This document shows positions 22,700 to 41,818 of a stretch of 64,000 bases of DNA, piece after piece. The notes below the pieces were generated by a model. The model did no database searches, had not been told where the DNA came from, and saw nothing but the letters and a program-made list of their open reading frames with translations. How positions within the stretch are numbered: position 1 is the stretch's first letter; each line of letters starts with the position of its first letter. Location of the stretch: the NCBI GenBank assembly GCA_022709525.1, contig JAKLIQ010000004.1, positions 73,260 to 137,259 of the forward strand, written 5' to 3'. This stretch comes from Candidatus Omnitrophota bacterium. Its GTDB lineage: Bacteria; Omnitrophota; Omnitrophia; Omnitrophales; Aquincolibacteriaceae. The position numbers and the translations under genes are program-made.

Positions 22700-23625
22700 A
22701 ACGCCTTCTTCCGCTGACTTTTTCCGTCCTGATCCTGATCATCATCTTTTCGCGGATCAATCTTGCGGATTTCGGAAACTACATCGCTTCGTTAGATATC
22801 CCGTTATTCGCTGCAGCCCTGCTTTGTTTCATCCCGCAGGTCCTCATTTCGGCCTGGCGCTGGAAATTCCTTATCAGAAAAAAAGCATCGTTGGGCCTCT
22901 TTGAATCCGTCAAGCTGGTGCTCGCGTCTTCTTCGCTAAATGTTTTTCTGCCGTCAAAAATAGGGGATCTTTCAAAAGCCTATTTTCTTAAAAAACAAGG
23001 AAAAATAGAATTAAAGCGGGGAACCAACGTGGTGCTTTTCGAACGTTATATTGATACAGCCTCGCTTTGCAGCATGGCGGTTTTAGGCATCCTGACCGAA
23101 GGGAGCTTTAGCCGTCATTTTTTAATTCTTCTCGGGATCTCATGCGGCGTTATCGCTCTATTTCCGGTCCTCTACTTTTTGAAATTCGAAAAAGAACCGA
23201 AATTTTCGTTTGGCGGAAAACATCCGTGGATGGAAAAACTGCGCCATTTCTTAAAAGACGCTCAGGAATATCTTCTCGAACTTAAGAAAGATCAAAAAAC
23301 GCTTTGGCTCGCTATCGCTGCATCCGTTTTTCTGTGGTCGCTTCATCTTTTTCAATTTTATCTCGTTTTCCTGGCGATCCATGCCCCGGTTGCCTGGTAT
23401 CACGTTTTTTGTTTTGTCCCAGTCTCTATTTTAATAGGCATGATCCCCATAACGCTTGCGGGGATCGGCTCGCGGGACGCGGCGCTCATTCTTTTATTTG
23501 CCCCCTATGCGCCTGCCTCCCAAATGATTTTTATCGGTATTTTCGCTTCCTTGCGATATTTCATACCCGGGATCTGCGGCATTCCGTTCCTCCATCAATA
23601 CATGATCGAAGAACATGCGGAATAA
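22696..23625 (+). CDS. Flippase-like membrane protein (lysylphosphatidylglycerol-synthase TM-region/UPF0104-like)
   Basis: 8 transmembrane helices over ~310 aa and an ATGA overlap with the upstream gene. This family commonly sits beside GtrB-like GT2 genes. Confidence 0.55.
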   Translation: MKRLLPLTFSVLILIIIFSRINLADFGNYIASLDIPLFAAALLCFIPQVLISAWRWKFLIRKKASLGLFESVKLVLASSSLNVFLPSKIGDLSKAYFLKKQGKIELKRGTNVVLFERYIDTASLCSMAVLGILTEGSFSRHFLILLGISCGVIALFPVLYFLKFEKEPKFSFGGKHPWMEKLRHFLKDAQEYLLELKKDQKTLWLAIAASVFLWSLHLFQFYLVFLAIHAPVAWYHVFCFVPVSILIGMIPITLAGIGSRDAALILLFAPYAPASQMIFIGIFASLRYFIPGICGIPFLHQYMIEEHAE

Positions 23626-26600
23626 AACGACCTCCGGCTTTTTTACTGGGGAATCCCTGCCTTTATGTCTTTTAGGGCTCGCGATATTCCTTTTTTTCAT
23701 TGAAGTTTTTTTTCTCAAGGTCGGATTTTTTAGCGGGGATCACCGGGCGCAGCATTATCCTTGGGCCGCATTTTATGCGGCTCACATCAAGAACTTTCAG
23801 CTCCCGTGGTGGACGACGCTCTTCCATTGCGGCTTTCCGCTCCTCGCCGAAGGGCAAGTAGGAGCGCTTTATCCGCTTAACATTGTTTTCTATTTTTTCC
23901 TGCCGTTCCCTTTAGCCTATACTTACAATATCTTGGCGCATTTTTTTATTTCCGCTTTTTTTATTTATATCTTGTTGCGTTCCTTAGGCCTTTCACGAAG
24001 CGCTGCCTTGTTCGGCGGATTGATCTATTTGTTCGGTACGGCTCAAGGCGGCTATTATTACAACATCATTTCACTCAAAGTTCTGACCTGGTTTCCGTTC
24101 GCGCTGTATTTGGTCCGTAAGATCATCGAAGACGATCGCTACGATCTTTTCTCATGGCTCGCCCTTGTCTTTGCCTTTCAGATATTCGCCGGTTATCTGC
24201 AATACGCTGTTTATTCGATCGCATTCACGGCATTCTTTTTTTTCTGGTTTGCCTTCTCTAAATCTAGAGAAACTCATCGGCCGGACCGTTTCTGGAAACA
24301 ATTCGCCGCTTTCGCCGCGGCCCTTTTTTGCGCGATCCTCGTCGCATTGCCGCAATTGGGGAGCGCTCTTGAATTGTCTTTTTTTTCAAACCGCTATGGT
24401 TTCCCCGATGAATTCGCATACCTTGGCTCGCTTAACCCTGCGGCCGTAATGACGCTTTTTTTTCCGCAATGGGACGGCTTCCTTGGCGCTGAGATTTATG
24501 TTGGGGCTATCGGCCTTTTCTTCTTTTTGGTTTCCCTGTTTTTGCCAAAAAACAAACCAGAGCGCTTTTTTTTCTGGATGTTATTGGTAGCGCTGCTATG
24601 CGCGCTCGGAAAATTCAACCCTCTTTTTGTCCTGTTTGTAAAGCTCACGCACTTCACAAGCTTTAGAATACCGACGAAATTCATGTATTTTGCGGCTTTC
24701 GCGAGTTCGGTGCTGTGCGCTTACGGCTTTCAAAAATGGCAGGGTTTGGGACCGACCGCGCCTTCTTTTAAAAAACCATATCGGGCCTTTCTGGTCGTAT
24801 CCGGTCTAGGCATTCTAACGCTCCTCTCCGGCAGCGCGCTTCTTAAGCTTTTTGAAAATCCGATCAAGGATGCCGCGAGACAATTCATGAGCGTGAATTT
24901 TTCCCACTCGGTGGTCCACACCTTGCCGATGGAAGTTTATTTCGAGCGCTTGAACCTCTTCTATGAAAACATCCTAAACGCCATAGCACTTTCCAACCCG
25001 TGGAACCTTGCTTTTCTCTTATTTATGGCCGGAAGTATTATAGCGGTCGCGTATCTTCAAAGCATCGGATGGCGTGCGACGCGCCTCATAAAAATAGCGC
25101 TCTTTCTTTTTTTATTCACAAATCTATATGTTTACAGCTGGACCACCATCAAGGGCAATTACGAAACAGAACGTTTTATAAAAAAACCGTCGAAGCTGAT
25201 CGATGATTTAAAAGATCAAAAAGGAACTTTCCGCGTTCACCGCCTTATCACTGCAGTCCACAAAACGGAAGGATTCCCCATGCCACCGCATACCAACATG
25301 CTGGACCGGCTCTCCATCGTTGGCGGCTATAGCCCTCTGGTTCGGGCAGATTATTACGATCTTCTTGAAGGTATTGGCGACATCGACGATTCGAACCGCC
25401 TTAAGACCGCCACTCAAGAATCCATTGCCAACGAAAAAGCTCTTTTAAATTTTCTAAATGTGCGCTATCTCATCACCGATGAAATCCTGCATGATCCTTC
25501 TTTTGAAAAAATCGCGGAAGAAGGGGATTACTACCTATACCAAAATGCGGACGTCATGCCGCGGGCTTTTTGGGTCGCGAATTCATTCCAAATGAATACC
25601 CAAAAAGATTTTACGGGTCTCGTCCACACGGGGAAATTCGAACCTCAGAGATACGCTTACCTAGCTTCCGCCGATAGCGCTCAAACAACAAATAACTCTC
25701 TGCCATGGCTTCCCGCAACTATCCTTGAAGATCAAGATTCCCGCGCGGTCTTTTTAATCAACGTGCCGGCGCCGGGTTTTTTGGTCACGAGCGATCTTTC
25801 TTATCCGGGGTGGCATGCTTACGTGAACGGCGTTGAAAAACCAGTGCTCCAAGTAAACGGCGTCTTCCGAGGCTTGCAACTCGATGATCCCGGAAATACG
25901 ACGATCGAGTTTCGATACCAGCCTATTTGGCGAACAATCGCCGGATTTTCTGCCGCTTTCGGATTAATCTTGTTCTTAATGCCGCTTGCCCGCGGACAGA
26001 AAGGATCCCGTCAACGCTCTTTACCTACCGAAAAAACTAGCGACTTCATCCGAACGCTAAAACCCTATCTCGTCACTCGAGAGACTTGTCCGTCCTGTCA
26101 GTGTTCCACAAAAGGACTTCGAACATATCGACTTGAGCATTTTAATCTCTACCGTTGCTTGTGCGGTTTGCGATTTATCGATCCCTCTTTGAACGCCGAA
26201 GGTCAAATGATGATCTATCAATCCTCCGAGGCACTAAAAAAGATCAATCCAGCCCTTGAACATTACTACGAATATGAAACATTAAAAAAGGGAGGTCGGA
26301 CCCGTAACGATTACGAGAAATCCCTTGGAGCGCTAAGAAAAGCGGGCGCTCACGGACAAATGCTCGAAGTGGGGTGCGGCACCGGTTCTTTTCTGCGATT
26401 TGCGCATGAACGCGGGTGGCAAGTGCTCGGTATTGATTCGAGCAAGCCAAATATCGAATTGCTAGCACGGCAAAATATTCCGGCGATCTGTGAAGATTTT
26501 TTGAACTTGAAATCGGAAAAAAAATTTGGCGTTATCGTTCTTTGGGATGTCCTTGAGCATTTTCAAGACCCTTCGACGTTCATTAAAAAAAGCTTTGAGC

Positions 26601-26944
26601 TTCTCGAATCAGAGGGCTTGATCCTGATCGCCGCGCCGCTCTATCCTAATCTCTTGAGCTCGCTGGCTGAGCTCGTATACCGGGTGAGTTTTGGAAAAAT
26701 ACGGGGACCTATGGAGAAAATGTACATGGTAGAACATGCCTTGTATTTCAGCGAGAAATCACTTGCTGACATTTTAATGCGGCATGGTTTTACGAAAAAG
26801 ATCTCTTGGCGAACGGAAACAGATTTAAGACGTTATGCTTTTGGACCAATGACCCGCTTTCTTTTAGCCTGTTTTTTCATCTTGGCGCGACTTCTAAAAC
26901 AGCAAAATCGAACTATTTTCATCGGACAAAAAAAAGTTTTTTGA
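23615..26944 (+). CDS. YfhO-like GT-C membrane glycosyltransferase fused to a C-terminal Zn-ribbon plus class I SAM methyltransferase
   Basis: N-terminal ~780 aa is polytopic with a large extracytoplasmic domain, YfhO-like. The C-terminus has CPSCQC...CLCG and a methyltransferase motif I (LEVGCGTGSF). Confidence 0.6.
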   Translation: MRNKTTSGFFTGESLPLCLLGLAIFLFFIEVFFLKVGFFSGDHRAQHYPWAAFYAAHIKNFQLPWWTTLFHCGFPLLAEGQVGALYPLNIVFYFFLPFPLAYTYNILAHFFISAFFIYILLRSLGLSRSAALFGGLIYLFGTAQGGYYYNIISLKVLTWFPFALYLVRKIIEDDRYDLFSWLALVFAFQIFAGYLQYAVYSIAFTAFFFFWFAFSKSRETHRPDRFWKQFAAFAAALFCAILVALPQLGSALELSFFSNRYGFPDEFAYLGSLNPAAVMTLFFPQWDGFLGAEIYVGAIGLFFFLVSLFLPKNKPERFFFWMLLVALLCALGKFNPLFVLFVKLTHFTSFRIPTKFMYFAAFASSVLCAYGFQKWQGLGPTAPSFKKPYRAFLVVSGLGILTLLSGSALLKLFENPIKDAARQFMSVNFSHSVVHTLPMEVYFERLNLFYENILNAIALSNPWNLAFLLFMAGSIIAVAYLQSIGWRATRLIKIALFLFLFTNLYVYSWTTIKGNYETERFIKKPSKLIDDLKDQKGTFRVHRLITAVHKTEGFPMPPHTNMLDRLSIVGGYSPLVRADYYDLLEGIGDIDDSNRLKTATQESIANEKALLNFLNVRYLITDEILHDPSFEKIAEEGDYYLYQNADVMPRAFWVANSFQMNTQKDFTGLVHTGKFEPQRYAYLASADSAQTTNNSLPWLPATILEDQDSRAVFLINVPAPGFLVTSDLSYPGWHAYVNGVEKPVLQVNGVFRGLQLDDPGNTTIEFRYQPIWRTIAGFSAAFGLILFLMPLARGQKGSRQRSLPTEKTSDFIRTLKPYLVTRETCPSCQCSTKGLRTYRLEHFNLYRCLCGLRFIDPSLNAEGQMMIYQSSEALKKINPALEHYYEYETLKKGGRTRNDYEKSLGALRKAGAHGQMLEVGCGTGSFLRFAHERGWQVLGIDSSKPNIELLARQNIPAICEDFLNLKSEKKFGVIVLWDVLEHFQDPSTFIKKSFELLESEGLILIAAPLYPNLLSSLAELVYRVSFGKIRGPMEKMYMVEHALYFSEKSLADILMRHGFTKKISWRTETDLRRYAFGPMTRFLLACFFILARLLKQQNRTIFIGQKKVF

Positions 26945-26946
26945 CC

Positions 26947-28428
26947 ATGATCCCTTTTTCCATTCTTCTCTTCGCATTTTTGCTAAAAATCCCGTTCCTC
27001 GCCAAACCCTTGGTCGGTTACTTTGGGAGCTACCAGACCATCAACGCGATGATGGCCCAAATGATGCTGCATGGTCCTTGGCAAAACCTCACCGCGCCAC
27101 GCACCTTTATCCTATTCGATGGACATCCGGGGCTTCATTTAATTTACTATCCCATCGGTTCTTTAGCTGCGGCGGTTTTGAATTCGTTTTTTAGCGGGTC
27201 CCTTGTTTTTTGGGGACGCTTCCAAGCAGCCTTATTCGCATTACTGGCAGGAGTCTTCTTTTTCAAAAGTACTGAAAAGATACTCAATCGCCGGATCGCC
27301 CTTATTTCGCTCTTCATCTTCTCGCTTTCACCTACGGTTATGACCATGGGGACTAGCTTCCAGAATGAGGCGCCGGCTCTTTTTTTTCTGAGTTTCGCTT
27401 TTTGGCTATTTTTATCAGAAAAGATTTATGCCGGGTTCCTGGCCGGGCTTTTATTTGCTTTTGCCGTCGCGGCCCGTCTTCATTTCTTATCTGTTGCGCC
27501 GGTTTTTTTATTTGTCTGGGGTTCGGAAAAAAGAAAGGGGCGCCAGCTTCTAGTTTTTATATTAGGGTTATTGATCCCGATTTTCTTGCTCTACGGATAT
27601 TACTATTTGCTTGAAAAAAATTTTCCAACGCAGGTGATGACCAGCCTTTTCAGCCAATCCCATGAAGGCCGCCTTTTACCGGATTTCTTGGGGTTTACAA
27701 AAGATTTCTACTCACGATTACTGATGATTATGATCGGTCCTTGGCTGACCCCGGTCATTCTGCCTCTATTGCTATTGCAGAACCCTGCCCGATGGAAAAA
27801 GGAACGGATTTTTGGGATTTGGCTTGTTTTCTCTCTTTCCGTGATCGTTCTTCTGCCTAAAAAAGTTGCTGATCATCCTTTTTATCTGATCCATTGCGTC
27901 CCCGCAGCAGCGGTCTTAGCTGCATCCGCCTATGAGACATTTAAAGGCTTGATACGGAAAAGCATCCGTGTTTTGTTTTGGAGCGCTTTTCTTTTTTGCG
28001 CTTTACGCTATTATGTGCCGACCGCGTTATCGGGAGGAATGGACAAAAAGAAAATCCCAGCGATAGGGAAGCAGGTCCAGGCTTTAACGCAACCTCAAGA
28101 CAAGATCATTGCTTCCCATGGTTCGTCGCCCGATCTTTTATATTACGCGAACAGATGGGGCTGGCCCTTTAGTTTGACGATGAGGGAAAGCTATGTCCTG
28201 ACGAGCCCGCAGCCGCGCCATCAACGATTGGTCGGGAAAGGATACGGCGATCCAGTTCTCTGGCTTGAAAAATTACGCTCTGAGGGAGCCGCTTATTTAG
28301 TGCTTACAGAACCCGATGTCTTTCGCGCGCAAAAAGATTTTTTTGATCATGTTATGAAGAATTATCCACTTGTACAAAAAAGCGATAGATCGTTCTTGCT
28401 TTTTGATCTGAGAGAAAAACGCACATGA
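26947..28428 (+). CDS. GT-C fold membrane glycosyltransferase (ArnT/PMT_2-like)
   Basis: Polytopic N-terminal region with a C-terminal soluble domain. TGA/ATG coupling with the upstream gene. Confidence 0.6.
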   Translation: MIPFSILLFAFLLKIPFLAKPLVGYFGSYQTINAMMAQMMLHGPWQNLTAPRTFILFDGHPGLHLIYYPIGSLAAAVLNSFFSGSLVFWGRFQAALFALLAGVFFFKSTEKILNRRIALISLFIFSLSPTVMTMGTSFQNEAPALFFLSFAFWLFLSEKIYAGFLAGLLFAFAVAARLHFLSVAPVFLFVWGSEKRKGRQLLVFILGLLIPIFLLYGYYYLLEKNFPTQVMTSLFSQSHEGRLLPDFLGFTKDFYSRLLMIMIGPWLTPVILPLLLLQNPARWKKERIFGIWLVFSLSVIVLLPKKVADHPFYLIHCVPAAAVLAASAYETFKGLIRKSIRVLFWSAFLFCALRYYVPTALSGGMDKKKIPAIGKQVQALTQPQDKIIASHGSSPDLLYYANRWGWPFSLTMRESYVLTSPQPRHQRLVGKGYGDPVLWLEKLRSEGAAYLVLTEPDVFRAQKDFFDHVMKNYPLVQKSDRSFLLFDLREKRT

Positions 28429-29141
28429 AAACTTTGATCGTAATGCCCACCTATAATGAACGCGACAATATCGAGCGCCTTGTGGGCCGCCTGATGAACG
28501 TCGATTCCGGCATCGATGTTCTCATAGTTGACGACAATTCGCCTGACGGAACAGGGGATCTTGCAGAAAGACTCGCGCAAAAGAATCCGAGAATTCATGT
28601 GCTTCGACGGCCCGGCAAACAAGGTCTTGGGCCCGCGTATATCGCCGGCTTCCAATGGGGATTGTCGCGCGATTACGACGCTTTCATGGAAATGGATGCG
28701 GATCTATCGCATCGCCCTCGCTATATTCCGCGTTTTTTACAGGAAATCAAAGATGCGGATATCGTCGTAGGGTCTCGGTGGATCAAAGGGGGAGGTATCG
28801 CGAATTGGCCTCTATCCCGTGTTTTTCTTAGCCGTATGGCGAGCCTCTATGCAAAGCTTATTCTTGGCGTATCGATCGCCGACATGACCGCCGGCTACAT
28901 CTGTTATCGCCGTAAAGTTTTGGAAGAGCTCGGACTTGATCGTATTCATTCTGACGGTTATTGCTTTCAAATCGAAATGAAATATCGCGCCCTTTGCCGC
29001 GGCTTCAAGATCGTCGAGATCCCCATCATTTTCACCGATCGTAAGGCGGGGAATTCTAAAATCTCACGTCATATCGTTCTTGAAGCCCTGATTATCACCT
29101 GGATACTACGATTCAGAAAAAAGCTATTTGAACGACCATGA
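28425..29141 (+). CDS. Polyprenol/dolichol-phosphate mannosyltransferase-like GT2 (Dpm1/Ppm1 family)
   Basis: LIVMPTYNERDNI, VDDNSPDGT and a DAD motif. 238 aa, soluble. Confidence 0.85.
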   Translation: MKTLIVMPTYNERDNIERLVGRLMNVDSGIDVLIVDDNSPDGTGDLAERLAQKNPRIHVLRRPGKQGLGPAYIAGFQWGLSRDYDAFMEMDADLSHRPRYIPRFLQEIKDADIVVGSRWIKGGGIANWPLSRVFLSRMASLYAKLILGVSIADMTAGYICYRRKVLEELGLDRIHSDGYCFQIEMKYRALCRGFKIVEIPIIFTDRKAGNSKISRHIVLEALIITWILRFRKKLFERP

Positions 29142-29263
29142 GAAAAGAATTTCCAAAAAATCATCGTTTTCGCCGCGATTTTTGGACCATTCTTTGGTTT
29201 TTATGGCTCCTGATCGTCGCGAGTTTTTATTTCTTCGATCTTTTTATCTCAAAACTCAAATAG
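29138..29263 (+). CDS. Candidate 41-aa single-TM micro-protein (MRKEFPKNHRFRRDFWTILWFLWLLIVASFYFFDLFISKLK)
   Basis: Hand-translated; below the 60-aa cut-off of the ORF track. ATGA overlap with the Dpm1-like gene. Basic N-terminus followed by one hydrophobic helix. An in-frame TAG lies 6 nt before the next gene's ATG. Confidence 0.3.
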   Translation: MRKEFPKNHRFRRDFWTILWFLWLLIVASFYFFDLFISKLK

Positions 29264-29269
29264 ATCCCT

Positions 29270-31066
29270 ATGGACCAATTTGCCGCGTTTGTTCATGTTG
29301 TATGGATTGTCGCTCTCGGAAATTTCTGGGGCCAACGGATCCTTGTTTGGGCAAAGTATAAGTTTGATTCCGAACTCGAACGAACTGCTTTTGGTTTTGC
29401 GGCCGGATTCGGCTCTTTTGGCCTTCTCTTGGCGATCCTCGGCTCCTTGGGTTTCTTTTCCGCTTCGGCTTGTTATTTATTTTTCATCTCTCTGACCGTT
29501 CTTCTTTTTTTTGGCTGGAAAGACCTACCCCCCTGGAACCCAAGGTTGATTTTTGAAGCATTACAAAAAAGCCCGCTTCTTTGGGCGCTAAGCGCTGTGC
29601 TGGCTCTAGCCATCATTCAATCCATGACCCCTTCAACTGCTCATGACGCGCTTGCTTACCAGCTTGAAATACCAAAACGCTTTGCACTGGCTCATCGTAT
29701 TTGCTATGTGCCATACGGCGTCAATTCCGTATTCCCGCTACTCATGAACATGTTCTATGTTCTTTCATTGCTTTGGGACGGAACCCGCATGGCAAATCTG
29801 TTCCATTGCGTGACCGGCCTTGGCATCGTTATCGGATTACTTGCGATCGAGAGAAGATTCATTCCAAAGTCTTGGCTCGGAATAAGCGCTTTGATTTTCG
29901 CGTTGACCCCCGGTATTTTTGGTCAAATGTCACTGGCCTACACCGATGTCGCTTTGAGTTTTTTTATTTTCTTTGTTTTTTATTCGATTTTAAAATGGCA
30001 GGAAACCGCGGATCTGAAATGGTTCGTTCTGGCTGGCATCTACTTGGGCTTTGCCTTCGGAGTAAAATACCTTGCGGCGCTCGCCGCAATTTCGGTTACG
30101 GCGTATTTGATTGTCCTTGCGTCTTTAAGGAAAATAAAACTAGGGCCAGCGCTTGCGGGGCTTTTTTTGATGGCTTCCATTTCCTTCTTGATCGGATTCG
30201 CTTGGTATTTTCGTTCTTTTCTCTACGAAGGAAGCTTTCTTTACTTTGGAGAAAAAGGCTACATCGCCAAAAATCTGGGATATCTCAATTCATTTGCGCT
30301 TCCTTGGTCGATGACAATGCATCCACAATACTTTGGAGGCTCGTGGACGCGGCTTGGCATCATATTCCTAGCTTTTTTGCCCGGTTTGTTTCTGATTCGA
30401 AAGAAACCGGCGGCCGCTAACACTTTTCTTTTTTGGGGGATCATTTATTTTTGCTTGTGGACCCTTCTACCGAGACAGAATCTTCGCTTCCTTTTTCCGG
30501 TCTGCGCGCTGTGGTCGTTACCCATCGGCCATCTGATCGCATCCGGTTTTCCTGAGAAATGGCTCACGAAATGGTCCCGAATTTTTATTTTTGCCATTCT
30601 TATAATCGAGGCGGGTGCAGCTTTTTATCACGGAAGGAACAGCTACCGGGTCGCCCTGGGATTAGAGACTGAGGAGGATTATTTAAAACGAACGGAGCGA
30701 ACTTATGCGGTTGCTCAATTTGTGAACACGAATCTCCCTGAAAATGCAAAGATTCTAAATGCTTACGAGGTCCGGATGTTCCATTTTCGGCCGGAAGTGA
30801 TACGTGAGCCGGAATTTCGCCAAAAAACACACTACGACACTCGCTTCGCAACTTCCGAAGAAACCGTCGATTTTTTAAAACGTGCCGGCATCACCCATGT
30901 TTTGATCGCCCCGAGCGATGCTGCGGAGAAGCAAATCTTTCCGCCAAGAAATATCCGCCAACTTGTTTCCGATGCTCAAGTCGGGAAGAGCCGCTTTAAG
31001 GAGCTCTATCGAGAACCTTCCCAAAAAGATTCCGAATCAGGATATACGGTCCTGAGCCTTATATAA
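29270..31066 (+). CDS. GT-C fold membrane glycosyltransferase (PMT_2/ArnT family)
   Basis: Polytopic membrane protein with a STAHDALAYQLEIPKRF acidic-loop motif and a C-terminal soluble domain. Confidence 0.7.
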   Translation: MDQFAAFVHVVWIVALGNFWGQRILVWAKYKFDSELERTAFGFAAGFGSFGLLLAILGSLGFFSASACYLFFISLTVLLFFGWKDLPPWNPRLIFEALQKSPLLWALSAVLALAIIQSMTPSTAHDALAYQLEIPKRFALAHRICYVPYGVNSVFPLLMNMFYVLSLLWDGTRMANLFHCVTGLGIVIGLLAIERRFIPKSWLGISALIFALTPGIFGQMSLAYTDVALSFFIFFVFYSILKWQETADLKWFVLAGIYLGFAFGVKYLAALAAISVTAYLIVLASLRKIKLGPALAGLFLMASISFLIGFAWYFRSFLYEGSFLYFGEKGYIAKNLGYLNSFALPWSMTMHPQYFGGSWTRLGIIFLAFLPGLFLIRKKPAAANTFLFWGIIYFCLWTLLPRQNLRFLFPVCALWSLPIGHLIASGFPEKWLTKWSRIFIFAILIIEAGAAFYHGRNSYRVALGLETEEDYLKRTERTYAVAQFVNTNLPENAKILNAYEVRMFHFRPEVIREPEFRQKTHYDTRFATSEETVDFLKRAGITHVLIAPSDAAEKQIFPPRNIRQLVSDAQVGKSRFKELYREPSQKDSESGYTVLSLI

Positions 31067-31169: not shown

Positions 31170-33518
31170 ATGGTCACGGAATTAATGGGAACAAAAGCTG
31201 AGACTCTGGAGCGAATCGCTTCGCTTTTGACGAGATCGATCGTACAACCTGTCTGCAAATTTACCGTGAGTGAATGGCGTTCGGATGAGAGCGGGTGCCT
31301 CGCTCGCATTCAAAGCCATTTTGCCCATCAGCCTGGTCCTTTTATCGTCCGTTCTTCTGCGATCGAAGAGGATCTGGCCAACCTTTCGAACGCCGGAAAA
31401 TTCACTTCGATCGCAGGGGTCGAGCTAAAAGATCGGTCCAAACTTCGACATGCTATTCAATCAGTAATCGCCTCCTACGGAGAGCTTTCTTCGGGACAAA
31501 ACCAGTTCTTCCTCCAACCCATGGTCAAAGATGTTGCTATAAGCGGCGTTGTTTTCACCCGCGATCTTGACACGCTGTCACCGTACTACATTATCAATTA
31601 CGACGACGCTTCCCATCGCACTGACAGCGTGACATCAGGCAGATCGAATAAACTTAAAACTTTTGTAAAGTTCCGGAATTTCAAGACAAAGAATAGAAAA
31701 TTCGAAAAACTTATGGAGGCAATCGCGGAAGTTGAAACGGTCTGCAAAAGCGACTGTCTTGACATCGAATTCGCCATTGAAAAGACAGGGCAGATCCATC
31801 TTTTGCAGGTTCGGCCTATCGTAACTCGAGGCCGGACACTTCCTAAAGTATTCATGGTTGGTCATTATCTGCACAAGATCTTCATGAAAATCGACCATAT
31901 TAATGCGCCTCACCCCTATCTTCACGGCTGGCGCACCTTTTTAGGCGTTATGCCGGATTGGAATCCGGCCGAGATGATCGGTGTAAAACCGCGGCCTTTA
32001 GCGCTTTCTCTCTATAAGGAGTTGATCACCGATAAGACGTGGTCCTACCAACGTGATGACTACGGTTATCGAAATGTCCGTTCTTACCCGCTTCTGGTGA
32101 CGCTGATCGGTCATCCTTATATCGATGTGCGGGTCAGTTTCAATTCATTCATACCCAAAGGGATCGATGAAGAATTGGCGTCGCGCTTGGCAAATTATTT
32201 CTTGACAAAGCTGCAGGATTCTCCGGCCAGCCATGACAAAGTGGAATTTGATGTTGTTTTTTCCTGCTTCTTTCTCAATCTTGAAGACAAGCTTCAAGGG
32301 CTCAAAAAAAATGGTTTTACGGAAAGCGACCTCAAAAAAATCAAGGACGCGCTGATTGAATTAACCAACAACATTCTGACCCATCATAATGGGATTTTTG
32401 CCAACGATCTCAATAAGATCACCGAATTAGAGGAAAGGCAGCAAAAAGTCCTGACGTCTTCATTGAACCCGATTGAAAAAATTTACTGGCTTTTGGAAGA
32501 TTGCCGCCGTTACGGTACGCTTCCATTCGCCGGGTTGGCGCGGGCAGGATTTGTCGCCGTTCAATTCCTCCGTTCCATGGTTGAAACGAAAGTGATTTCC
32601 CGCGAAGATTTTGATGACTTCATGGCGTCGCTTGATACGATCGCAAAGCAAATGGCGCGGGATCGCAGCGCGCTTTCAAAAGAAAAATTTCTCGCCCGCT
32701 ATGGGCACCTCCGTCCCGGAACTTATGATATCCTCTCCTTAAACTACCGCGAAGGTTATGACCTCTACTTTTCAAATCAGCCTCTTCCCCAGGATCCTCC
32801 TGCTAAGAAAGATTTCCGCTTCAAAGATTCTCAACTCCGAACCCTTGATCTTCTTCTTAAAAAAGAGGGGATTCAAGTAAGCGCTGAGGATCTCATTACT
32901 TTCTTAAGGCAAGCCATCGAGGGAAGAGAATACTCGAAATTCGTTTTTACTAAAAGCGTGAGCGAAATCTTAGGGCTTGTAAAAGAATTGGCGGCCTTTT
33001 ACGAACTCACCCCCGAAGACGCTTCTTTCATTGATATCAAAACCATCTTGCATTTGTATGCAACGCTCGACCATCGCGATCTCTCCTGCATCTTGGCCGA
33101 AGAAATCGAGCGCAACCGCAGTTTCTATGAAATCACCAAATTGATCAAATTGCCGGCATTTATCGTTGAACCTGATAATGCTTTTGAATTCGAACTTGAA
33201 GAGGGAAAACCCAACTACATTACCTTGGGGCGCGCTCGTGGAGAGACGATACTGGAAGAAAATATTTTGACGAGCAATCTCGACGGCAAAGTCGTTCTTA
33301 TCCCAAGCGCTGACCCGGGATATGACTGGATATTCACGCGCCCGCTGGCCGGACTTATTACGATGTACGGAGGCGCTAATTCCCATATGGCCATCCGCGC
33401 GGCTGAACTGCGCATCCCGTCCGTCATCGGTGCCGGTGAAAAAAATTATTCCGAATGGTCCCGCGCCAAATACCTTGAGATTGATTGCGCTAATCAACAA
33501 GTAACGGTGCTCCGATGA
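31170..33518 (+). CDS. PEP-utilising-enzyme-family ATP-dependent kinase (ATP-grasp N-domain plus C-terminal phosphohistidine mobile domain); candidate L-glutamine kinase (Cj1418-like)
   Basis: C-terminal GGANSHMAIRAAELRIPSVIGAG phosphohistidine motif and a PPDK_N-like N-terminus. The ATG at 31170 has an AAGAGGA site upstream; the longer track ORF would run into the terminator. Confidence 0.65.
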   Translation: MVTELMGTKAETLERIASLLTRSIVQPVCKFTVSEWRSDESGCLARIQSHFAHQPGPFIVRSSAIEEDLANLSNAGKFTSIAGVELKDRSKLRHAIQSVIASYGELSSGQNQFFLQPMVKDVAISGVVFTRDLDTLSPYYIINYDDASHRTDSVTSGRSNKLKTFVKFRNFKTKNRKFEKLMEAIAEVETVCKSDCLDIEFAIEKTGQIHLLQVRPIVTRGRTLPKVFMVGHYLHKIFMKIDHINAPHPYLHGWRTFLGVMPDWNPAEMIGVKPRPLALSLYKELITDKTWSYQRDDYGYRNVRSYPLLVTLIGHPYIDVRVSFNSFIPKGIDEELASRLANYFLTKLQDSPASHDKVEFDVVFSCFFLNLEDKLQGLKKNGFTESDLKKIKDALIELTNNILTHHNGIFANDLNKITELEERQQKVLTSSLNPIEKIYWLLEDCRRYGTLPFAGLARAGFVAVQFLRSMVETKVISREDFDDFMASLDTIAKQMARDRSALSKEKFLARYGHLRPGTYDILSLNYREGYDLYFSNQPLPQDPPAKKDFRFKDSQLRTLDLLLKKEGIQVSAEDLITFLRQAIEGREYSKFVFTKSVSEILGLVKELAAFYELTPEDASFIDIKTILHLYATLDHRDLSCILAEEIERNRSFYEITKLIKLPAFIVEPDNAFEFELEEGKPNYITLGRARGETILEENILTSNLDGKVVLIPSADPGYDWIFTRPLAGLITMYGGANSHMAIRAAELRIPSVIGAGEKNYSEWSRAKYLEIDCANQQVTVLR

Positions 33519-34150
33519 AAAAAATCCTCTTAAGCCAACGTTTAATTCAAAATCCAAGTTATCCTGAGATTCGGGAAGCGCTCGACATCCAATGGGGCGC
33601 ATTTCTTTCTAAATGCGGTCTGCTTCCGATCGCATTATCATTCAAAGCCCCGCTTGACGAATATTTCCGTTTGATCAAGCCGGATGGGGTCCTTTTAACG
33701 GGAGGGAACGATCTTGCTTCGCTCAATCCCACGGATCCATTATGCAAGATGCGCGATGAGTTCGAAAGTCGGTTGATCGAGATTGCCGTAAAATCCAAGA
33801 TCCCTCTGCTGGGAGTTTGCCGTGGGGCGCAAATGGTCGCTCATTTCTTTGGATCAACCTTTAAAAAGCGGGATGGCCATGTCGGCATCAACCATCGGGT
33901 GCGTTTCCAAGGACGCGGGATCTTCGAAGCAAACTATTCCCAAAAGACTTTGGTCAATTCGTACCACGGTTTTTGCATTCAAAGCACCGGCAAAGAACTT
34001 CTGACTGAAGGGATTGTGGAGACCGATCAGACCGTGGAAGCCTTTTCTCATAAATCACTTCCGATCTTTGGTATGATGTGGCATCCAGAACGCGTCGACC
34101 CGTTTTTAGTTTCCGATATTTCTTTTTTTAAAAAAATCTTTAAAGCTTAA
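33515..34150 (+). CDS. Class I glutamine amidotransferase-like / peptidase C26 hydrolase; candidate gamma-glutamyl-CDP-amidate hydrolase (Cj1417-like)
   Basis: Cys nucleophile (GVCRGAQM) and His (MWHPER) motifs. 211 aa. ATGA overlap with the upstream kinase. Confidence 0.7.
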   Translation: MKKILLSQRLIQNPSYPEIREALDIQWGAFLSKCGLLPIALSFKAPLDEYFRLIKPDGVLLTGGNDLASLNPTDPLCKMRDEFESRLIEIAVKSKIPLLGVCRGAQMVAHFFGSTFKKRDGHVGINHRVRFQGRGIFEANYSQKTLVNSYHGFCIQSTGKELLTEGIVETDQTVEAFSHKSLPIFGMMWHPERVDPFLVSDISFFKKIFKA

Positions 34151-34158
34151 GGGGTTCC

Positions 34159-34893
34159 ATGCGAGCAATCATATTGGCGGCGGGGGAAGGACAACGCCTT
34201 CGCCCCTTAACACTTGATCGGCCTAAATGCCTTGTGGAATATCAAGGAAAACCGATCATTGATTACCAGATCGACACCATGCGCTCCTGCGGCATCAAAG
34301 ATATCGTTTTGATCAAAGGCTATAAACAGGAAACCCTCCAGCGCCCTAAAGTCCGCTATGTGATCAATCCCGAATATGCAACGACCAATATGGTGGCGAC
34401 TTTATTTTGCGCCGAATCTTATTTTGACGATGATCTTTTGATCAGCTATGGCGATATTCTTTATGGCCGGTCGATCCTGGAACCGGTGCTTGCTTCCAAT
34501 GAGGATTTTGCCGTAGCGGTATCAATGAATTGGAAAGAGCTTTGGCTCAAACGCATGGATGACCCTCTGAAGGATGCCGAGACCATGAAACTCGATGACC
34601 GCGGATTCATCCGGGAGTTGGGCAAAAAACCAAAATCCTACGATGAGATCCAAGGTCAATACATGGGGCTTTTTAAGATCAAGAAAAAAATGCTTCCAAA
34701 GGTCAGAGCTGCTTATCATGATGCAGACAAAAATGCGGTTTATGACGGTAAAAATTATCGGAATATGTTCATGACGAGTTTTATTCAGCTGATGATCGAT
34801 AAAGGTTTTCCGGTCAAAGCCGTCCAAGTCACGGGGGAGTGGCTTGAGATCGATCATCTGGAAGATCTTAAAGTTTCCTGCAAATTCGACTGA
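34159..34893 (+). CDS. LicC-like nucleotidyltransferase; candidate CTP:phosphoglutamine cytidylyltransferase (Cj1416-like)
   Basis: MRAIILAAGEGQRLRPLT nucleotidyltransferase signature. 244 aa. Confidence 0.7.
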   Translation: MRAIILAAGEGQRLRPLTLDRPKCLVEYQGKPIIDYQIDTMRSCGIKDIVLIKGYKQETLQRPKVRYVINPEYATTNMVATLFCAESYFDDDLLISYGDILYGRSILEPVLASNEDFAVAVSMNWKELWLKRMDDPLKDAETMKLDDRGFIRELGKKPKSYDEIQGQYMGLFKIKKKMLPKVRAAYHDADKNAVYDGKNYRNMFMTSFIQLMIDKGFPVKAVQVTGEWLEIDHLEDLKVSCKFD

Positions 34894-34955
34894 ATGCCAA
34901 TCTTTTTAATGCCATTTTATTTGATAATTTTTGTATACTATCGGCCTGAAAACCT

Positions 34956-35681
34956 ATGAAAACTAACGCAAAAACCCAAGTGGTTGCGATCGATGGACCG
35001 TCTTACGTGGGGAAGAGCACCATCTCCAGAGAGTTGGCCGACCGGATGGGGTTCCTTTATGTCAACACCGGACACATGTATCGTGCGATCGGCCGCATCG
35101 CGATCGAAAACAAGATCGACCCCAAAGATGAGACTGCTATTGTCAAAATCGCAAAAACGACCGATTTTAAATTTTTCAGCGGCAAAGGTTTCTGCGGCAC
35201 TGTTGTCAACGGCAAAGACTGGACGCGGGAGCTGGACCATCAAGATATCGTCTTTTTCGCCTCGCGGATCTCGGTCATCCGGGAATTAAGGGATATCCTC
35301 ACAGCTAAACAGCGGGAGTTCTCGCAAGAACATCCAATCGTTATGGAGGGGCGCGACATCGGTACCATTGTGTTCCCTGATGCCATGTGGAAGTTTTACA
35401 TCACCGCTTCCGTTGAGATCCGGGCCTGGCGCATGTTCAAGATAATGACGGAGGAAGAAAAGAAGAAATGCCCTGACTATCACGTCTTGATCCCCAAGAT
35501 CGAAAAACTGGATGAGATCGACCGTAATCGTGAAATCGCCCCCTTGAAACTTGCTGCCGACGCCGTAATCTATGACAATTCAGACAGCCCGACGGAAGTC
35601 CAGGATGCGATCATCCTGCAATATTACATGAATCACAGAGATGAGATCTGTCGAAACTCAGCTCTTCTGAAAAACAAGTAA
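34956..35681 (+). CDS. cmk: Cytidylate kinase-family P-loop kinase
   Basis: IDGPSYVGKST P-loop, NTGHMYRA and GRDIGTIVFPDA motifs; the last closely matches E. coli Cmk (GRDMGTVVFPDA). Confidence 0.8.
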   Translation: MKTNAKTQVVAIDGPSYVGKSTISRELADRMGFLYVNTGHMYRAIGRIAIENKIDPKDETAIVKIAKTTDFKFFSGKGFCGTVVNGKDWTRELDHQDIVFFASRISVIRELRDILTAKQREFSQEHPIVMEGRDIGTIVFPDAMWKFYITASVEIRAWRMFKIMTEEEKKKCPDYHVLIPKIEKLDEIDRNREIAPLKLAADAVIYDNSDSPTEVQDAIILQYYMNHRDEICRNSALLKNK

Positions 35682-35698
35682 ATCGGAAGGGTAAGGCC

Positions 35699-36577
35699 TT
35701 GGAGACTATCGCGGAATTAAGAAAGATCTGCCAAACAACCGCAAAAAAGGACGTTTCAAATGTTTACATGCGGTATGTTTCCCGTTTTTTTTCCATCTAT
35801 CTGACGCGGCTTATCCTTCCTTATCCGGTCACTCCCAATCAGGTCAGTTTCGCCATGATCGTTACCGGAGTGATTGCGACATTCTTTTTCTTAAACCCCT
35901 CAAACCTGATCTTTTTGACCGGCGCACTGCTTCTGCAGCTTTGGTACATCATCGATTGCATGGACGGGGAAGTGGCGCGATACCGACAATACCAGCAAAA
36001 AAAGATCGTTGTTACCGATAAACGGCAATCCGGCATGTCGGGAAAATATTATGACGTGATCAATCACTATATTATCAACCTGCTTGTTCCTGCCATGATC
36101 GGCGTCGGTCTGTTCGAACAAACTGCTAATAAATTCTACATCGTCCTTGGGATTTTCGGCGCCCTTGGGCAGGTACTCACGCTTGCCATGCATGACGGCG
36201 GACATCGAATCACGATCGATAAGCTTATGAAATTCCGCTCGGTTCGAATTTCGGGCGAAATGAGCGGAGATCCTGAAAATCCCATCGATAACTCGAAAGA
36301 GAAACGTAGCCTGGCGCATTGGGCATTCATGATCGTCCATTACACCACAACATATCCGACCGTCATGAACCTCGTTTTGATCGCGGCAATCTTTGAAATC
36401 TTACTGCCGGGCTGGAATTGGCGGATCTCGCTTTTATGGTACCTAACCGCCGCATCCCTCCTTGTCTCGGCGACGATCATCACACGAACGATTGGCCAGA
36501 ATATCTTGGACCGGGAATTTCAAAAGAATTTTCAAGAGATCGAATCTGATGACCCTTCAGGGCCCTCCGGGTCCTGA
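35699..36577 (+). CDS. CDP-alcohol phosphatidyltransferase-family membrane protein (divergent motif)
   Basis: DCMDGEVAR matches D-x2-D-G-x2-A-R. The second half of the motif is divergent (insertion; G-x3-D-x3-H). About 6-8 transmembrane helices. TTG start with a GGAAGGG site upstream; an alternative ATG lies at 35768. Confidence 0.55.
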   Translation: METIAELRKICQTTAKKDVSNVYMRYVSRFFSIYLTRLILPYPVTPNQVSFAMIVTGVIATFFFLNPSNLIFLTGALLLQLWYIIDCMDGEVARYRQYQQKKIVVTDKRQSGMSGKYYDVINHYIINLLVPAMIGVGLFEQTANKFYIVLGIFGALGQVLTLAMHDGGHRITIDKLMKFRSVRISGEMSGDPENPIDNSKEKRSLAHWAFMIVHYTTTYPTVMNLVLIAAIFEILLPGWNWRISLLWYLTAASLLVSATIITRTIGQNILDREFQKNFQEIESDDPSGPSGS

Positions 36578-36769: not shown

Positions 36770-37759
36770 ATGATTAATGCGATGGTGACAGGCGGCGCCG
36801 GTTTTATTGGAAGCCACTTGACCGAATTATTGATCCGCGAGGGGTGTCGCGTAACGGTCCTTGATAATTTTTCGACCGGACGGCGGCAAAATCTGCGATC
36901 TCTAGAAAAAACAAAGAACCTGACCATTCACAAGGCGGATATAAGCCGGTTTGACGCTATTAAGACCCTTTTTAAGGGAGTCGATTATGTGTTCCATCTT
37001 GCGGCCTTAGCGGATATTGTGCCCTCGATCGAAAGGCCGTTAGATTATTACAAGTCTAACGTCAGCGGTACGGTTTCCGTGCTTGAAGCAAGCCGGCGGG
37101 CCGGCGTGAAGCGGTTCCTTTATGCCGCATCTTCTTCATGTTACGGTATTGCGCGGGAATATCCGACCAAAGAGACCGCTGAGATCCGTCCCGAATATCC
37201 TTACGCTCTGACAAAAAATCTCGGTGAACAATGCGCGATGCATTGGAGCAAAGTCTACGGTCTTCCAACCGTATCGCTTCGTCTCTTTAATGTCTATGGG
37301 CCAAGAGCGCGCACTTCTGGAACTTATGGCGCTGTCTTCGGCGTTTTTTTAGCTCAAATGCTTCACAAGAAACCTTTTACGGTAGTCGGGGATGGAACTC
37401 AAACAAGGGATTTTGTTTTTGTAACCGATGTCGCAAAAGCGTTTTGGAAAGCCGCCAATGCCGATATTTCGGGCGAGATCTTCAATATTGGCTCCGGATC
37501 TCCGGTCAGTGTTAATCGGATCACCGAAATCCTTGGAGGTGATGTCGTTTTTGTTCCCAAGCGGCCAGGAGAACCGGATGTGACGCATGCAGATATCACA
37601 AAGGCGAGAAAGGTTCTCGGATGGGAGCCGGTCATAAAGATCGAGGAAGGAATCCAGACGTTGAAAAAAAATATTAATGATTTTAAAAATGCGCCGGTTT
37701 GGACTCCGGACTCAATAAAAGAGGCTACAAAAACGTGGTTCGCTTATTTGAAAGGCTAA
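36770..37759 (+). CDS. NAD-dependent epimerase/dehydratase-family protein (UDP-sugar 4-epimerase-like)
   Basis: VTGGAGFIGSH Rossmann motif and YxxxK. 329 aa, extended SDR fold. Confidence 0.85.
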   Translation: MINAMVTGGAGFIGSHLTELLIREGCRVTVLDNFSTGRRQNLRSLEKTKNLTIHKADISRFDAIKTLFKGVDYVFHLAALADIVPSIERPLDYYKSNVSGTVSVLEASRRAGVKRFLYAASSSCYGIAREYPTKETAEIRPEYPYALTKNLGEQCAMHWSKVYGLPTVSLRLFNVYGPRARTSGTYGAVFGVFLAQMLHKKPFTVVGDGTQTRDFVFVTDVAKAFWKAANADISGEIFNIGSGSPVSVNRITEILGGDVVFVPKRPGEPDVTHADITKARKVLGWEPVIKIEEGIQTLKKNINDFKNAPVWTPDSIKEATKTWFAYLKG

Positions 37760-37760
37760 C

Positions 37761-39326: not shown

Positions 39327-39925
39327 AAGCGACCATGAATATCCGAGACTATTTCTCAAATTTGAAACTTTGCTTAGATGCGGTAGAAGTGCGCGACGAG
39401 AAGCAAAATCTGCTCGCCCCGGACCCCGGCTTTCAACGCGCGATCGAATGGATCGCGGCCGCAGGAAAAAAACATGCTAAAGTGATCTTTGTCGGTAACG
39501 GCGGCAGCGCGGCGATCGCGAGCCATCAGGCGGTGGACCTCTGGAAAAACGGAGGCATTCGTGCGATCGCCTTTAATGATGCGTCGTTGCTCACCTGCGT
39601 CGGCAACGATTACAGTTATCCGGAAATTTTTGAAAAACCGGTCGCTATGTTCGCGGACGCAGACGACGTCCTAATCGCGATAAGTTCTTCCGGCCGATCG
39701 TCCAACATCCTTAAGGCCGCGCAAAAAGCCAAAGAACTTGGCTGCCGCGTTATCACGATGTCGGGATTCAAATCTGACAACCCGCTGCGCCAAGCGGGCC
39801 ACGTGAATTTTTATATACCATCCGATAGTTACGGATTCGTCGAAATCGCACATCTCACCCTTTGCCACTATCTGACGGATCATTTCGTTTCGGCCGCGCA
39901 AAAATTCCGGAAAAGCGGGGATTAA
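39323..39925 (+). CDS. gmhA: D-sedoheptulose-7-phosphate isomerase (SIS domain)
   Basis: SIS-domain motifs (VGNGGSAAIASH, ISSSGRS). ATGA overlap with the upstream gene. Confidence 0.8.
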   Translation: MKATMNIRDYFSNLKLCLDAVEVRDEKQNLLAPDPGFQRAIEWIAAAGKKHAKVIFVGNGGSAAIASHQAVDLWKNGGIRAIAFNDASLLTCVGNDYSYPEIFEKPVAMFADADDVLIAISSSGRSSNILKAAQKAKELGCRVITMSGFKSDNPLRQAGHVNFYIPSDSYGFVEIAHLTLCHYLTDHFVSAAQKFRKSGD

Positions 39926-39938
39926 CCTTCTTCTGAAT

Positions 39939-41006: not shown

Positions 41007-41818
41007 TGAAAAACCAGCTTCTTGCAAAAGCCAACGCGATTCGCGACGAGATCCTCAGGGTCTCAATCAAAAATAAAGCCGGCCACATCGCCCCCTCGCT
41101 TTCATCGGTGGATATCCTGACCGCGCTCTACTACAAGATCTTATCCTACAACCCCAAAAAACCTTTATGGGAAGACCGGGATCGAGTGGTTTTTTCAAAA
41201 GCGCACGGTTGTTACGCGCTTTACGCGATCCTTGCCGATCTTAACGTGATTCCCCGGAAAGAATGGGAAGGCTTTTATACATCGGAAAGTTCGCTTTTGG
41301 GCTGCATGGAGCACCGTCCGGAATATGGCCTTGAGGCAGGATGCGGATCGCTCGGGCATGGGTTGCCGATCGCGGTCGGCATTGCTTACGGCGCTAAGCT
41401 CCAAGAAAAAAAATATACGACATATTGCGTGATGGGGGACGGTGAATTCCAGGAAGGTTCGGCCTGGGAAGCGATCCTTTTTGCGATTAAGCATCAAGTT
41501 TCGAATCTTACGATCCTGGTGGACCACAATCGACTTCAAGCTATGGATTTTGTAAAAAACGTTCTTGATTCCGAGGAAAAAGAACTGATCAAGCGGTTGA
41601 AAGGATTCGGGCTTAATCCGATGCTTTGCCCCGGCCATGATCCTAAGGAGATCGCCGACTGCATCCATGCCGCGCAAAAATCAAATGCTTCGGTACCGGC
41701 GATCGTCGTCGCAGAAACGATCAAAGGATTTGGCCTAAAATGCATGGAAAACGTTCCGAAGTTCCATTTCAGAATCCCGAGCGATGAAGAATTAGCTAAA
41801 GGGAAAAGCTATGGATGA
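41006..41818 (+). CDS. Transketolase, N-terminal (TPP-binding) subunit
   Basis: TPP-binding GDGE and HGxxALY-type motifs. 270 aa, split-type transketolase. Confidence 0.85.
   Translation: MKNQLLAKANAIRDEILRVSIKNKAGHIAPSLSSVDILTALYYKILSYNPKKPLWEDRDRVVFSKAHGCYALYAILADLNVIPRKEWEGFYTSESSLLGCMEHRPEYGLEAGCGSLGHGLPIAVGIAYGAKLQEKKYTTYCVMGDGEFQEGSAWEAILFAIKHQVSNLTILVDHNRLQAMDFVKNVLDSEEKELIKRLKGFGLNPMLCPGHDPKEIADCIHAAQKSNASVPAIVVAETIKGFGLKCMENVPKFHFRIPSDEELAKGKSYG

Follow-up and report, generated by a model that had tools for sequence, protein, structure and literature searches.

A cytidylate kinase and a divergent membrane CDP-alcohol phosphotransferase follow a glutamine-kinase trio in an Omnitrophota glycan locus, suggesting a variant route to phosphoramidate glycoconjugates

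Phosphorus-nitrogen (P-N) decorations of the Campylobacter surface bear on resistance to serum, on recognition by phages and on the design of vaccines, and Campylobacter is to our knowledge the only group in which genes have been assigned to surface decorations of this kind. The O-methyl phosphoramidate (MeOPN) system of Campylobacter jejuni, as described in PMC3907429 and in the Raushel papers cited in PMC6429109, is characterized by the following components: the glutamine kinase Cj1418; the cytidylyltransferase Cj1416; the hydrolase Cj1417; a further kinase, Cj1415; the methyltransferases Cj1419/20; and the transferases Cj1421/22. Non-methylated phosphoramidates are known from the lipopolysaccharides of Xanthomonas and Shewanella (PMC3907429). 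Here we describe a five-gene block from a Candidatus Omnitrophota bacterium, at 31170-36577 of a 64,000-nucleotide stretch of DNA (GenBank assembly GCA_022709525.1, contig JAKLIQ010000004.1, positions 73,260 to 137,259 of the forward strand; hereafter the window). As in C. jejuni, the genes lie inside a surface-glycan locus, and the first three enzymes are orthologous by sequence comparison, stand in the same order and agree with their counterparts in the catalytic His of the kinase, the Cys-His-Glu triad of the hydrolase and the signature of the nucleotidyltransferase. Unlike C. jejuni, the 64 kb of the window hold neither a Cj1415-type kinase of the adenosine 5'-phosphosulfate (APS) kinase family (PF01583) nor a methyltransferase of the type that canonically neighbours the kinase; instead, the trio is followed by a paralogue of cytidylate kinase (Cmk) and a membrane protein related to the CDP-alcohol phosphotransferases. 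The implied donor would be cytidine diphosphoramidate itself and not its 3'-phosphate. The first half of the pathway is thus that known from Campylobacter, while the differing second half (Cmk and membrane transferase) suggests a new variant.

Other described systems share parts of this logic. The Pnt pathways: here Ppm-PntC fusions make CMP-2-aminoethylphosphonate for cell-surface phosphonoglycans, phosphoenolpyruvate (PEP) mutase-cytidylyltransferase systems yielding CMP-activated phosphonates (Rice et al. 2019, PMC6697681). As predicted for the window, activation is by a LicC-like cytidylyltransferase that couples a small phosphorus-bearing head group to cytidine monophosphate (CMP), ready to be passed to a surface molecule; the Pnt head group, however, is of the P-C type, from PEP mutase, whereas that of the window would be of the P-N type, from glutamine. 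The genomic neighbours named in the available part of that paper are LicD-like phosphotransferases and glycosyltransferases, with no mention there of a cytidylate kinase, NUDIX or CDP-alcohol enzyme (PMC6697681). The Clostridioides difficile FtaABCD system: this makes CDP-threonine and transfers it to N-acetylglucosamine on flagellin (bioRxiv 10.64898/2026.02.12.704994). Here too one operon assembles and methylates an uncommon CDP-linked head group, which a phosphotransferase then uses to modify a glycan with release of CMP; in contrast to the window, there is no dedicated Cmk, the donor is a CDP-amino acid instead of a diphosphoramidate, and the transferase FtaD is of the TagF-like kind without the CDP-alcohol phosphotransferase motif. 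The Borg elements: a preprint on these already describes an MeOPN-like gene cluster, and interprets a CDP-alcohol phosphotransferase encoded within a few genes of its MeOPN-like and phosphonate genes as a phospholipid enzyme. Our literature search found no paper linking cytidylate kinase or the transferase family reported here to phosphoramidate or phosphonate transfer.

The block comprises the following genes:

31170..33518, + strand: L-glutamine kinase homologue (Cj1418 family), 782 aa, with an ATP-grasp PPDK_N domain and a C-terminal phosphohistidine swivel domain
33515..34150, + strand: gamma-glutamyl-CDP-amidate hydrolase homologue (Cj1417-like), 211 aa, class I amidotransferase/C26
34159..34893, + strand: LicC/PntC-like cytidylyltransferase with the position and family of Cj1416, 244 aa
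34956..35681, + strand: dedicated cytidylate (CMP) kinase paralogue (Cmk), 241 aa, of a cassette-linked subclade
35699..36577, + strand: divergent CDP-alcohol phosphotransferase-like integral membrane protein, the proposed phosphoramidate transferase, 292 aa

A prediction made earlier from the DNA alone (the original prediction) had described the first four of these as a module mirroring the C. jejuni precursor pathway. All four open reading frames (ORFs) are present on the + strand as it had placed them, and every motif that it quoted (GGANSHMAIRAAELRIPSVIGAG, GVCRGAQM, MWHPER and GRDIGTIVFPDA) is found in the translations. Its claim that the four are translationally coupled holds for the first two, where a 4-base ATGA overlap joins the kinase stop to the hydrolase start, and not for the rest, which are separated by gaps of 8 and 62 bases. 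It also ended the unit at 35681 and so left out the fifth gene, which begins 17 bases past Cmk and is part of the same conserved block. This gene opens with a TTG start behind the Shine-Dalgarno sequence GGAAGGG, and the N-terminus of its product shows family-wide conservation; the ATG of the kinase is likewise preceded by a Shine-Dalgarno sequence (AAGAGGA). Gaps of 103 and 192 bases border the block, and its five tightly packed genes may well form one biosynthesis-and-transfer unit for a P-N head group. Promoter and terminator scans gave counts at or below shuffle expectation and were uninformative.

A sequence search of the PDB returned no matching structure of the C. jejuni proteins Cj1415-Cj1418, and comparison with the latter was made through proxies, namely NCBIfam models and orthologues from metagenome-assembled genomes (MAGs) of Campylobacterales. 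The kinase matches NF004508 (PRK05849) over residues 5-781 of 782 with 953 bits against a cut-off of 501; we take this model to represent the Cj1418 family, in agreement with the JGI naming of close homologues as 'glutamine kinase'. Its Pfam domains are PF01326 (PPDK_N) and PF00391 (PEP-utilizers) only, with no PEP-utilizers_C barrel, and models of PEP synthase, pyruvate, phosphate dikinase (PPDK) and rifampin phosphotransferase reach at most 45 bits. The assignment to the Cj1418 type made in the original prediction therefore stands, and a PEP synthase or PPDK identity is rejected. The C-terminal His739, for which a check had been proposed, and the GGxNSHM motif (GGANSHM in the window) are invariant across 36 homologues.

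The hydrolase, with the Pfam domains Peptidase_C26 and GATase, finds its best specific match in NF045546 (187.5 bits, E 2.8e-55), under the equivalog cut-off of 250. Orthologues from canonical loci also score below that cut-off (185-190 bits in Campylobacterales MAGs, 147 in Sulfuricurvum and 98 in Pseudomonas); hence, it appears to be too strict for orthologues outside the narrow group of the model itself, and the score of the window protein, equal to those of the Campylobacterales MAG orthologues, supports the Cj1417-like assignment over that of a generic amidotransferase. The predicted catalytic triad holds up as well, Cys102, His190 and Glu192 each being at least 95% conserved over 77 syntenic homologues. 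The third protein belongs to the Pfam families NTP_transf_3 and NTP_transferase and has LicC (1jyk, E 1.3e-16) among its best PDB relatives, in agreement with its earlier description as LicC-like. Its signature LAAGxGxR...PK is at least 95% conserved over 85 homologues, and it matches the genes at the same position in Campylobacterales MAG loci with 270-290 bits; NCBIfam gave no specific match for it or for these Campylobacterales orthologues. By these comparisons, the trio are orthologues of Cj1418, Cj1417 and Cj1416 with the catalytic residues kept, and are predicted by homology to make cytidine diphosphoramidate.

The trio might conceivably make something else, either through another kinase substrate or through transfer of phosphoglutamine from CDP-L-glutamine with the hydrolase acting later or elsewhere. 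Such a reading can draw on the facts that only the Campylobacter enzymes have been characterized, that the hydrolase falls under its equivalog cut-off and that CDP-threonine sets a precedent for CDP-amino acids as phosphotransferase donors (bioRxiv 10.64898/2026.02.12.704994). We consider it very unlikely, since the full-length kinase match far above the family cut-off, the hydrolase score and triad, and the retention of gene order across phyla together argue for conserved trio chemistry.

Relatives of the kinase are widespread: at least 7,856 clusters were matched, several of them already named 'glutamine kinase' by JGI, and a scan of one genome per species found relatives in at least 566 GTDB species, including members of Campylobacterales, Geobacter, Pseudomonas, Paenibacillus, Anaerotruncus, Acidobacteriota, Bacteroidota, Spirochaetes and Chlamydiales. 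With so many species carrying it, names for it in JGI and a Borg preprint describing such a cluster, the module is not unusual outside Campylobacter. ORFs called in the fetched loci were searched with the window proteins, and canonical loci supplied additional queries for the APS kinase and the methyltransferase. The order kinase-hydrolase-cytidylyltransferase, which the original prediction had matched to C. jejuni, is kept in almost every locus and across many phyla, and a small methyltransferase adjoins the kinase in most. A Cj1415-type APS kinase is found in 76 of the 88 kinase loci, as a separate gene within 10 kb (48/88) or fused to the kinase (28/88). In the fusions, of about 975 aa, the APS-kinase domain lies N-terminal to the glutamine kinase (L035, 9386-12310; L063, 9374-12313; and 26 further loci); they occur in Acidobacteriota, Bryobacterales and some other lineages and were confirmed with Pfam in two Acidobacteriota proteins. 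Such a fusion ties, in Rosetta-stone fashion, the first step of donor synthesis to the last.

Several variations on the canonical arrangement were seen alongside. A gene with a TagF-like Glyphos_transf domain adjoins the trio in some canonical loci (L004, 13707-14765; L006; L056; L070; L073), and is a candidate for the soluble transferase of the 3'-phosphorylated donor, the counterpart of the membrane transferase of the window. L123 (7994-14284) combines a glutamine kinase homologue with a formyltransferase and an APS-kinase protein of 415 aa, has no adjacent C26 hydrolase or LicC-like gene and continues with a 644-aa protein without Pfam domains: it is possibly another variant of the pathway. 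The large Pfam-less proteins that come after the trio in L122 and L123, used as probes for the canonical transferase, both proved to be singletons. DNA-binding helix-turn-helix (HTH) domains of the HTH_3/HTH_19 type are fused to pathway enzymes in two settings: to a glutamine kinase homologue (P0004, 915 aa, 66% identical to that of the window), and to nucleotidyltransferases of about 380 aa in phosphonate-type loci (L119, 2868-4019; L121, 2836-3951). These enzymes may also act as regulators.

Only six kinase loci lack an APS kinase and carry a Cmk: the window, L001, L005, L027, L090 and L092. Their kinases, all at least 60% identical to that of the window, form a single clade in a neighbour-joining tree, to which the APS-kinase-type L122 and L123 (55-56% identity) are sisters; the six-locus clade is probably of Omnitrophota. 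In all six, the transferase gene comes after Cmk, and the cassette, which in four of the loci has a NUDIX gene ahead of Cmk, stands directly behind the cytidylyltransferase in the same orientation. None has the canonical methyltransferase. In the window, neither of two APS-kinase queries matched any ORF of at least 70 aa across the 64 kb, and a query for the methyltransferase type that canonically flanks the kinase (from L004) found no match; its other methyltransferase domains lie at the C-terminus of the protein at 23615-26944 and at 44853-45797. None of the kinase loci examined combines an APS kinase with the Cmk-transferase pair.

A conventional MeOPN-type pathway is nonetheless conceivable here, with a Cj1415-like kinase and a Cj1421/22-like transferase located elsewhere in the genome, and with Cmk and the membrane transferase serving an unrelated CDP-alcohol reaction, such as one for a phospholipid or polyol-phosphate head group, in this glycan locus. 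The reading given to the nearby CDP-alcohol phosphotransferase in the Borg preprint is in keeping with it. Yet, with an APS kinase within 10 kb in 76 of 88 loci, its absence from all six loci of the clade is conspicuous; the constant placement of the cassette behind the cytidylyltransferase and the monophyly of the clade's transferases, which carry private residues (Q97, next to the signature AR, and T161), likewise make a conventional pathway unlikely.

The fourth gene encodes a Cytidylate_kin protein of Pfam that scores 202 bits with TIGR00017, against an equivalog cut-off of 135.6, and keeps the P-loop GxxxxGKS and the motifs NTGxMYR and EGRDIGxxVFPDA. In agreement with its earlier description, it is thus cytidylate-kinase-like and not APS-kinase-like. 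Nor is it a counterpart of Cj1415: it belongs to a separate, autonomous cassette of the composition (NUDIX)-Cmk-CDP-alcohol phosphotransferase. Among 139 Cmks, those linked to the cassette form one clade of 22, a subclade that carries a C-terminal extension; in an exhaustive search, a best match at 285 bits is followed by about 10 representatives at 167-199 and then by a plateau of hundreds of generic Cmks at about 130-155. Cmk and the transferase occur together in at least 17 distinct loci. A housekeeping cmk that stands here by chance was rejected as the main explanation on account of this pairing and the separate clade. A different proposal is that the Cmk-like kinase replaces Cj1415 non-homologously, phosphorylating cytidine diphosphoramidate or another CMP conjugate to a different activated donor; the distinct subclade with its extension and the position of L001-type members below the TIGR00017 cut-off (130.7 vs 135.6) could be taken that way. 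Cmk acts on the free 5'-phosphate of CMP, however, a position that in CMP conjugates already bears a substituent. As the window protein is moreover above the (d)CMP kinase cut-off with its motifs kept, and the same kinase is found in loci of the phosphonate type or without a donor cassette, in which a diphosphoramidate would not be expected, a replacement of Cj1415 seems improbable.

The fifth gene product matches PF01066 (CDP-OH_P_transf) with 23.0 bits, just above the cut-off of 22, and the profile of its family finds AF2299 (4o6m) at E 1.3e-12 and also IPCT-DIPPS. Its AlphaFold model (predicted local distance difference test score 91.7) retrieves CDP-alcohol phosphotransferases as all of the top 17 Foldseek matches in the PDB, with a probability of 1.0 and template-modelling scores of about 0.5. 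With AF2299 (4o6m/4o6n), IPCT-DIPPS (4mnd) and the phosphatidylinositol-phosphate synthases it shares the fold, the D1xxD2GxxAR...GxxxD3 part of the signature, and a similar membrane topology with a juxtamembrane N-terminal helix. It differs from these in being just 13-18% identical, in lacking a cytosolic N-terminal domain, in having 20 instead of 8 residues between AR and G and in an invariant His in place of the fourth Asp (N122-H123); the full signature D-x2-D-G-x2-A-R-x8-G-x3-D-x3-D is therefore absent. The last Asp of that signature is usually regarded as the catalytic base, and the enzymes in general release CMP from CMP-P-X donors. Invariant in the family are D86, D89, G90, A93, R94, G115, D119, N122 and H123, the first five in the arrangement D86-x2-D89-G-E-x-A93-R94. 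The segment G115-x3-D119-x2-N122-H123 lies early in the next predicted helix (113-142), and in the model G115, D119 and H123 would share one face of this helix 3. The family comprises about 72 clusters at 90% identity, with a drop in score from 189 to 102 bits towards generic CDP-alcohol phosphotransferases; the handful of members that bear a name belong to Omnitrophota and Verrucomicrobiae.

The neighbourhoods of the cassette were collected by a metagenome scan with the transferase family profile and by context look-ups. There are three classes by donor partner. Class A: in six loci the (NUDIX)-Cmk-transferase cassette stands beside the glutamine-kinase trio. Class B: in L093, L099, L119, L120 and L121 it adjoins phosphonate cassettes of the Pnt type, with a PEP mutase-cytidylyltransferase fusion, a phosphonopyruvate decarboxylase, an iron-containing alcohol dehydrogenase and an HTH-nucleotidyltransferase. 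Class C: in L097, L098, L100, L102, L104 and L105 one or two methyltransferases lie upstream, and the DNA available, which includes the full 10-kb flanks in three of the six loci, holds no donor cassette; in L098, a Pfam scan found no nucleotidyltransferase within 10 kb. The same transfer cassette beside either the trio or phosphonate genes indicates that the donor cassette has been exchanged and the transfer cassette has stayed constant. The phylogeny of the transferase largely follows the donor class, with class A monophyletic, and it appears from the sequences to have co-evolved with the donor cassette. The NUDIX proteins of the relatives resemble NDP-X pyrophosphatases such as NudE and YffH, which fits CDP-linked intermediates. 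We had expected a cytidylyltransferase in every cassette locus, an expectation that failed for class C. Class C coordinates, covering methyltransferase(s), NUDIX, Cmk and transferase, are 7128-10873 in L098, 7133-10879 in L102 and 7835-10852 in L100; one possibility for these loci is that cytidine diphosphate (CDP) made by Cmk is itself the donor, giving a phosphate or methylphosphate. Among class B loci, L119 (4734-8732 and 18437-20014) has the PEP mutase-cytidylyltransferase fusion, the decarboxylase, the alcohol dehydrogenase and a B12-binding radical S-adenosylmethionine (SAM) enzyme in a surface-glycan context, a set that we take to resemble the early fosfomycin genes Fom1, Fom2, FomC and Fom3.

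We propose the following sequence of events for the window. The LicC-like enzyme would join the product of the kinase to CMP from cytidine triphosphate (CTP), giving CDP-L-glutamine, from which the C26 hydrolase would strip the glutamate to leave cytidine diphosphoramidate. Because a Cj1415-type APS kinase is absent from the 64-kb window, the 3'-phosphorylation step would be skipped, and cytidine diphosphoramidate would be used directly as a CMP-P(NH2) donor. At the cytoplasmic face, an acceptor hydroxyl might then attack the amidated beta-phosphorus on the membrane transferase, yielding an O-phosphoramidate ester and CMP; the dedicated Cmk would turn this CMP into CDP, pulling the reversible transfer forward and regenerating CTP. 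More speculatively, the acceptor might be a lipid-linked sugar that is later moved to a surface glycoconjugate by the glycosyltransferases of the GT2 and GT-C (PMT_2- and YfhO-like) types encoded nearby, and a methyltransferase domain fused to one of these proteins could O-methylate the product. Donor synthesis by the trio, direct membrane transfer and re-phosphorylation of CMP make up what we regard as the best explanation of the locus, with a probability of roughly 0.5. It is supported chiefly by the finding that loci with an APS kinase and loci with the Cmk-transferase pair do not overlap, by the swapping of donor cassettes and by the apparent co-evolution of transferase and donor class.

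Several observations weigh against this explanation. The exclusive distribution concerns one clade and hence one evolutionary event, not six independent ones. The APS-kinase search spanned 64 kb, and a Cj1415-type kinase could sit elsewhere in the genome, as the conventional pathway considered above would have it. Class C cassettes, which exist without a donor cassette in the available DNA (flanks in L097, L098, L100, L102, L104 and L105), favour that pathway too, the trio not being strictly needed for the cassette. The transferase may use another CDP-linked donor or CDP itself, adjacency to the trio not being the same as a shared substrate. The tree of the Cmks fails to follow donor class cleanly. 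Finally, the 20-residue spacing from AR to G and His123 in place of the final Asp mean that the chemistry of the transferase may differ.

Upstream of the block, the window encodes the following glycan-related proteins:

23615..26944, + strand: membrane protein with YfhO-matching relatives and a C-terminal SAM methyltransferase domain, 1109 aa (Methyltransf_23 at residues 909-1060)
26947..28428, + strand: PMT_2-like (GT-C) membrane glycosyltransferase, weak PMT_2 match, start taken from the L085 gene call
28425..29141, + strand: small GT2 glycosyltransferase (Glycos_transf_2), like polyprenyl-phosphate glycosyltransferases in size and position
29270..31066, + strand: PMT_2 (GT-C) membrane glycosyltransferase directly upstream of the kinase (PMT_2, PMT)

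The types represented here, namely a methyltransferase, a small GT2, and PMT_2- and YfhO-like GT-C proteins, are recurrent neighbours of the cassette, and in the window lie upstream of it (23615-31066). The methyltransferase domain of the first protein matches stand-alone methyltransferases beside NUDIX-Cmk in L097, L098, L100, L102 and L104 with 164-196 bits, and the protein matches a 792-aa gene product after the transferase in L119 with 388 bits; a GT-C-like protein fused to a methyltransferase is an unusual combination. Homologues of the second adjoin the cassette in L119, L120, L121, L001, L027 and L090. The GT2 matches the cassette-adjoining GT2 of L119 with 204 bits and has further homologues in L027, L090, L120 and L121; homologues of the last protein lie upstream of the kinase in L001, L027, L090 and L092. 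Directly downstream of the block (36770-42302) are genes for a short-chain dehydrogenase/reductase-type epimerase/dehydratase, a GmhA-like SIS isomerase, a radical SAM/SPASM enzyme, a split transketolase and an HldE-like bifunctional protein with its domains reversed, the cytidylyltransferase-like domain coming first and the PfkB kinase second. This gene set suggests a modified heptose or higher sugar and could supply the acceptor sugar. A protein that clusters with the neighbouring epimerase at 90% identity or more carries the annotation Candidatus Omnitrophota.

The first 9 kb of the window hold rpoN, accD, an ATP-binding cassette ATPase and two GGDEF genes, after which come a UDP-glucose dehydrogenase and rmlA, rmlB and rmlD. 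The G+C content is about 0.50-0.55 over 1-20000 and falls to 0.45-0.49 over 20000-64000; the drop near 20 kb coincides with the start of the long same-strand glycan locus, which may have been acquired horizontally. Copies of the locus with 100% protein identity are present in five independent assemblies (L085-L089: two JGI samples, two from ENA and one Logan assembly of the SRA), and the organism of the window thus recurs across datasets.

A wider generalization may be offered tentatively, with rather less than even confidence, from these gene contexts. Uncultured Omnitrophota-like bacteria may possess an as yet undescribed modular system of methyltransferase, NUDIX hydrolase, dedicated Cmk, His-variant CDP-alcohol phosphotransferase and GT2/GT-C proteins, in which CMP would be displaced as a small phosphorus head group is attached to a lipid-linked surface glycan; the head group, be it phosphoramidate, phosphonate or possibly plain or methyl phosphate, would be set by the adjoining donor cassette, and the window would represent the first route to phosphoramidate glycoconjugates without 3'-phosphorylation.

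The spread of the trio over many phyla implies that P-N decorations probably occur far more widely than one would judge from the structures known so far. In at least one lineage, the half of the pathway that covers activation and transfer seems to have given way to an enzyme of the CDP-alcohol phosphotransferase type, which is found in phosphonate pathways as well. If this is true, an orphan subfamily of membrane enzymes would gain a function; P-N groups could be installed chemoenzymatically with a simpler set of enzymes that needs no 3'-phosphorylated donor; and the way in which CMP-activated phosphonates and phosphoramidates are passed to their acceptors in these bacteria would be explained.

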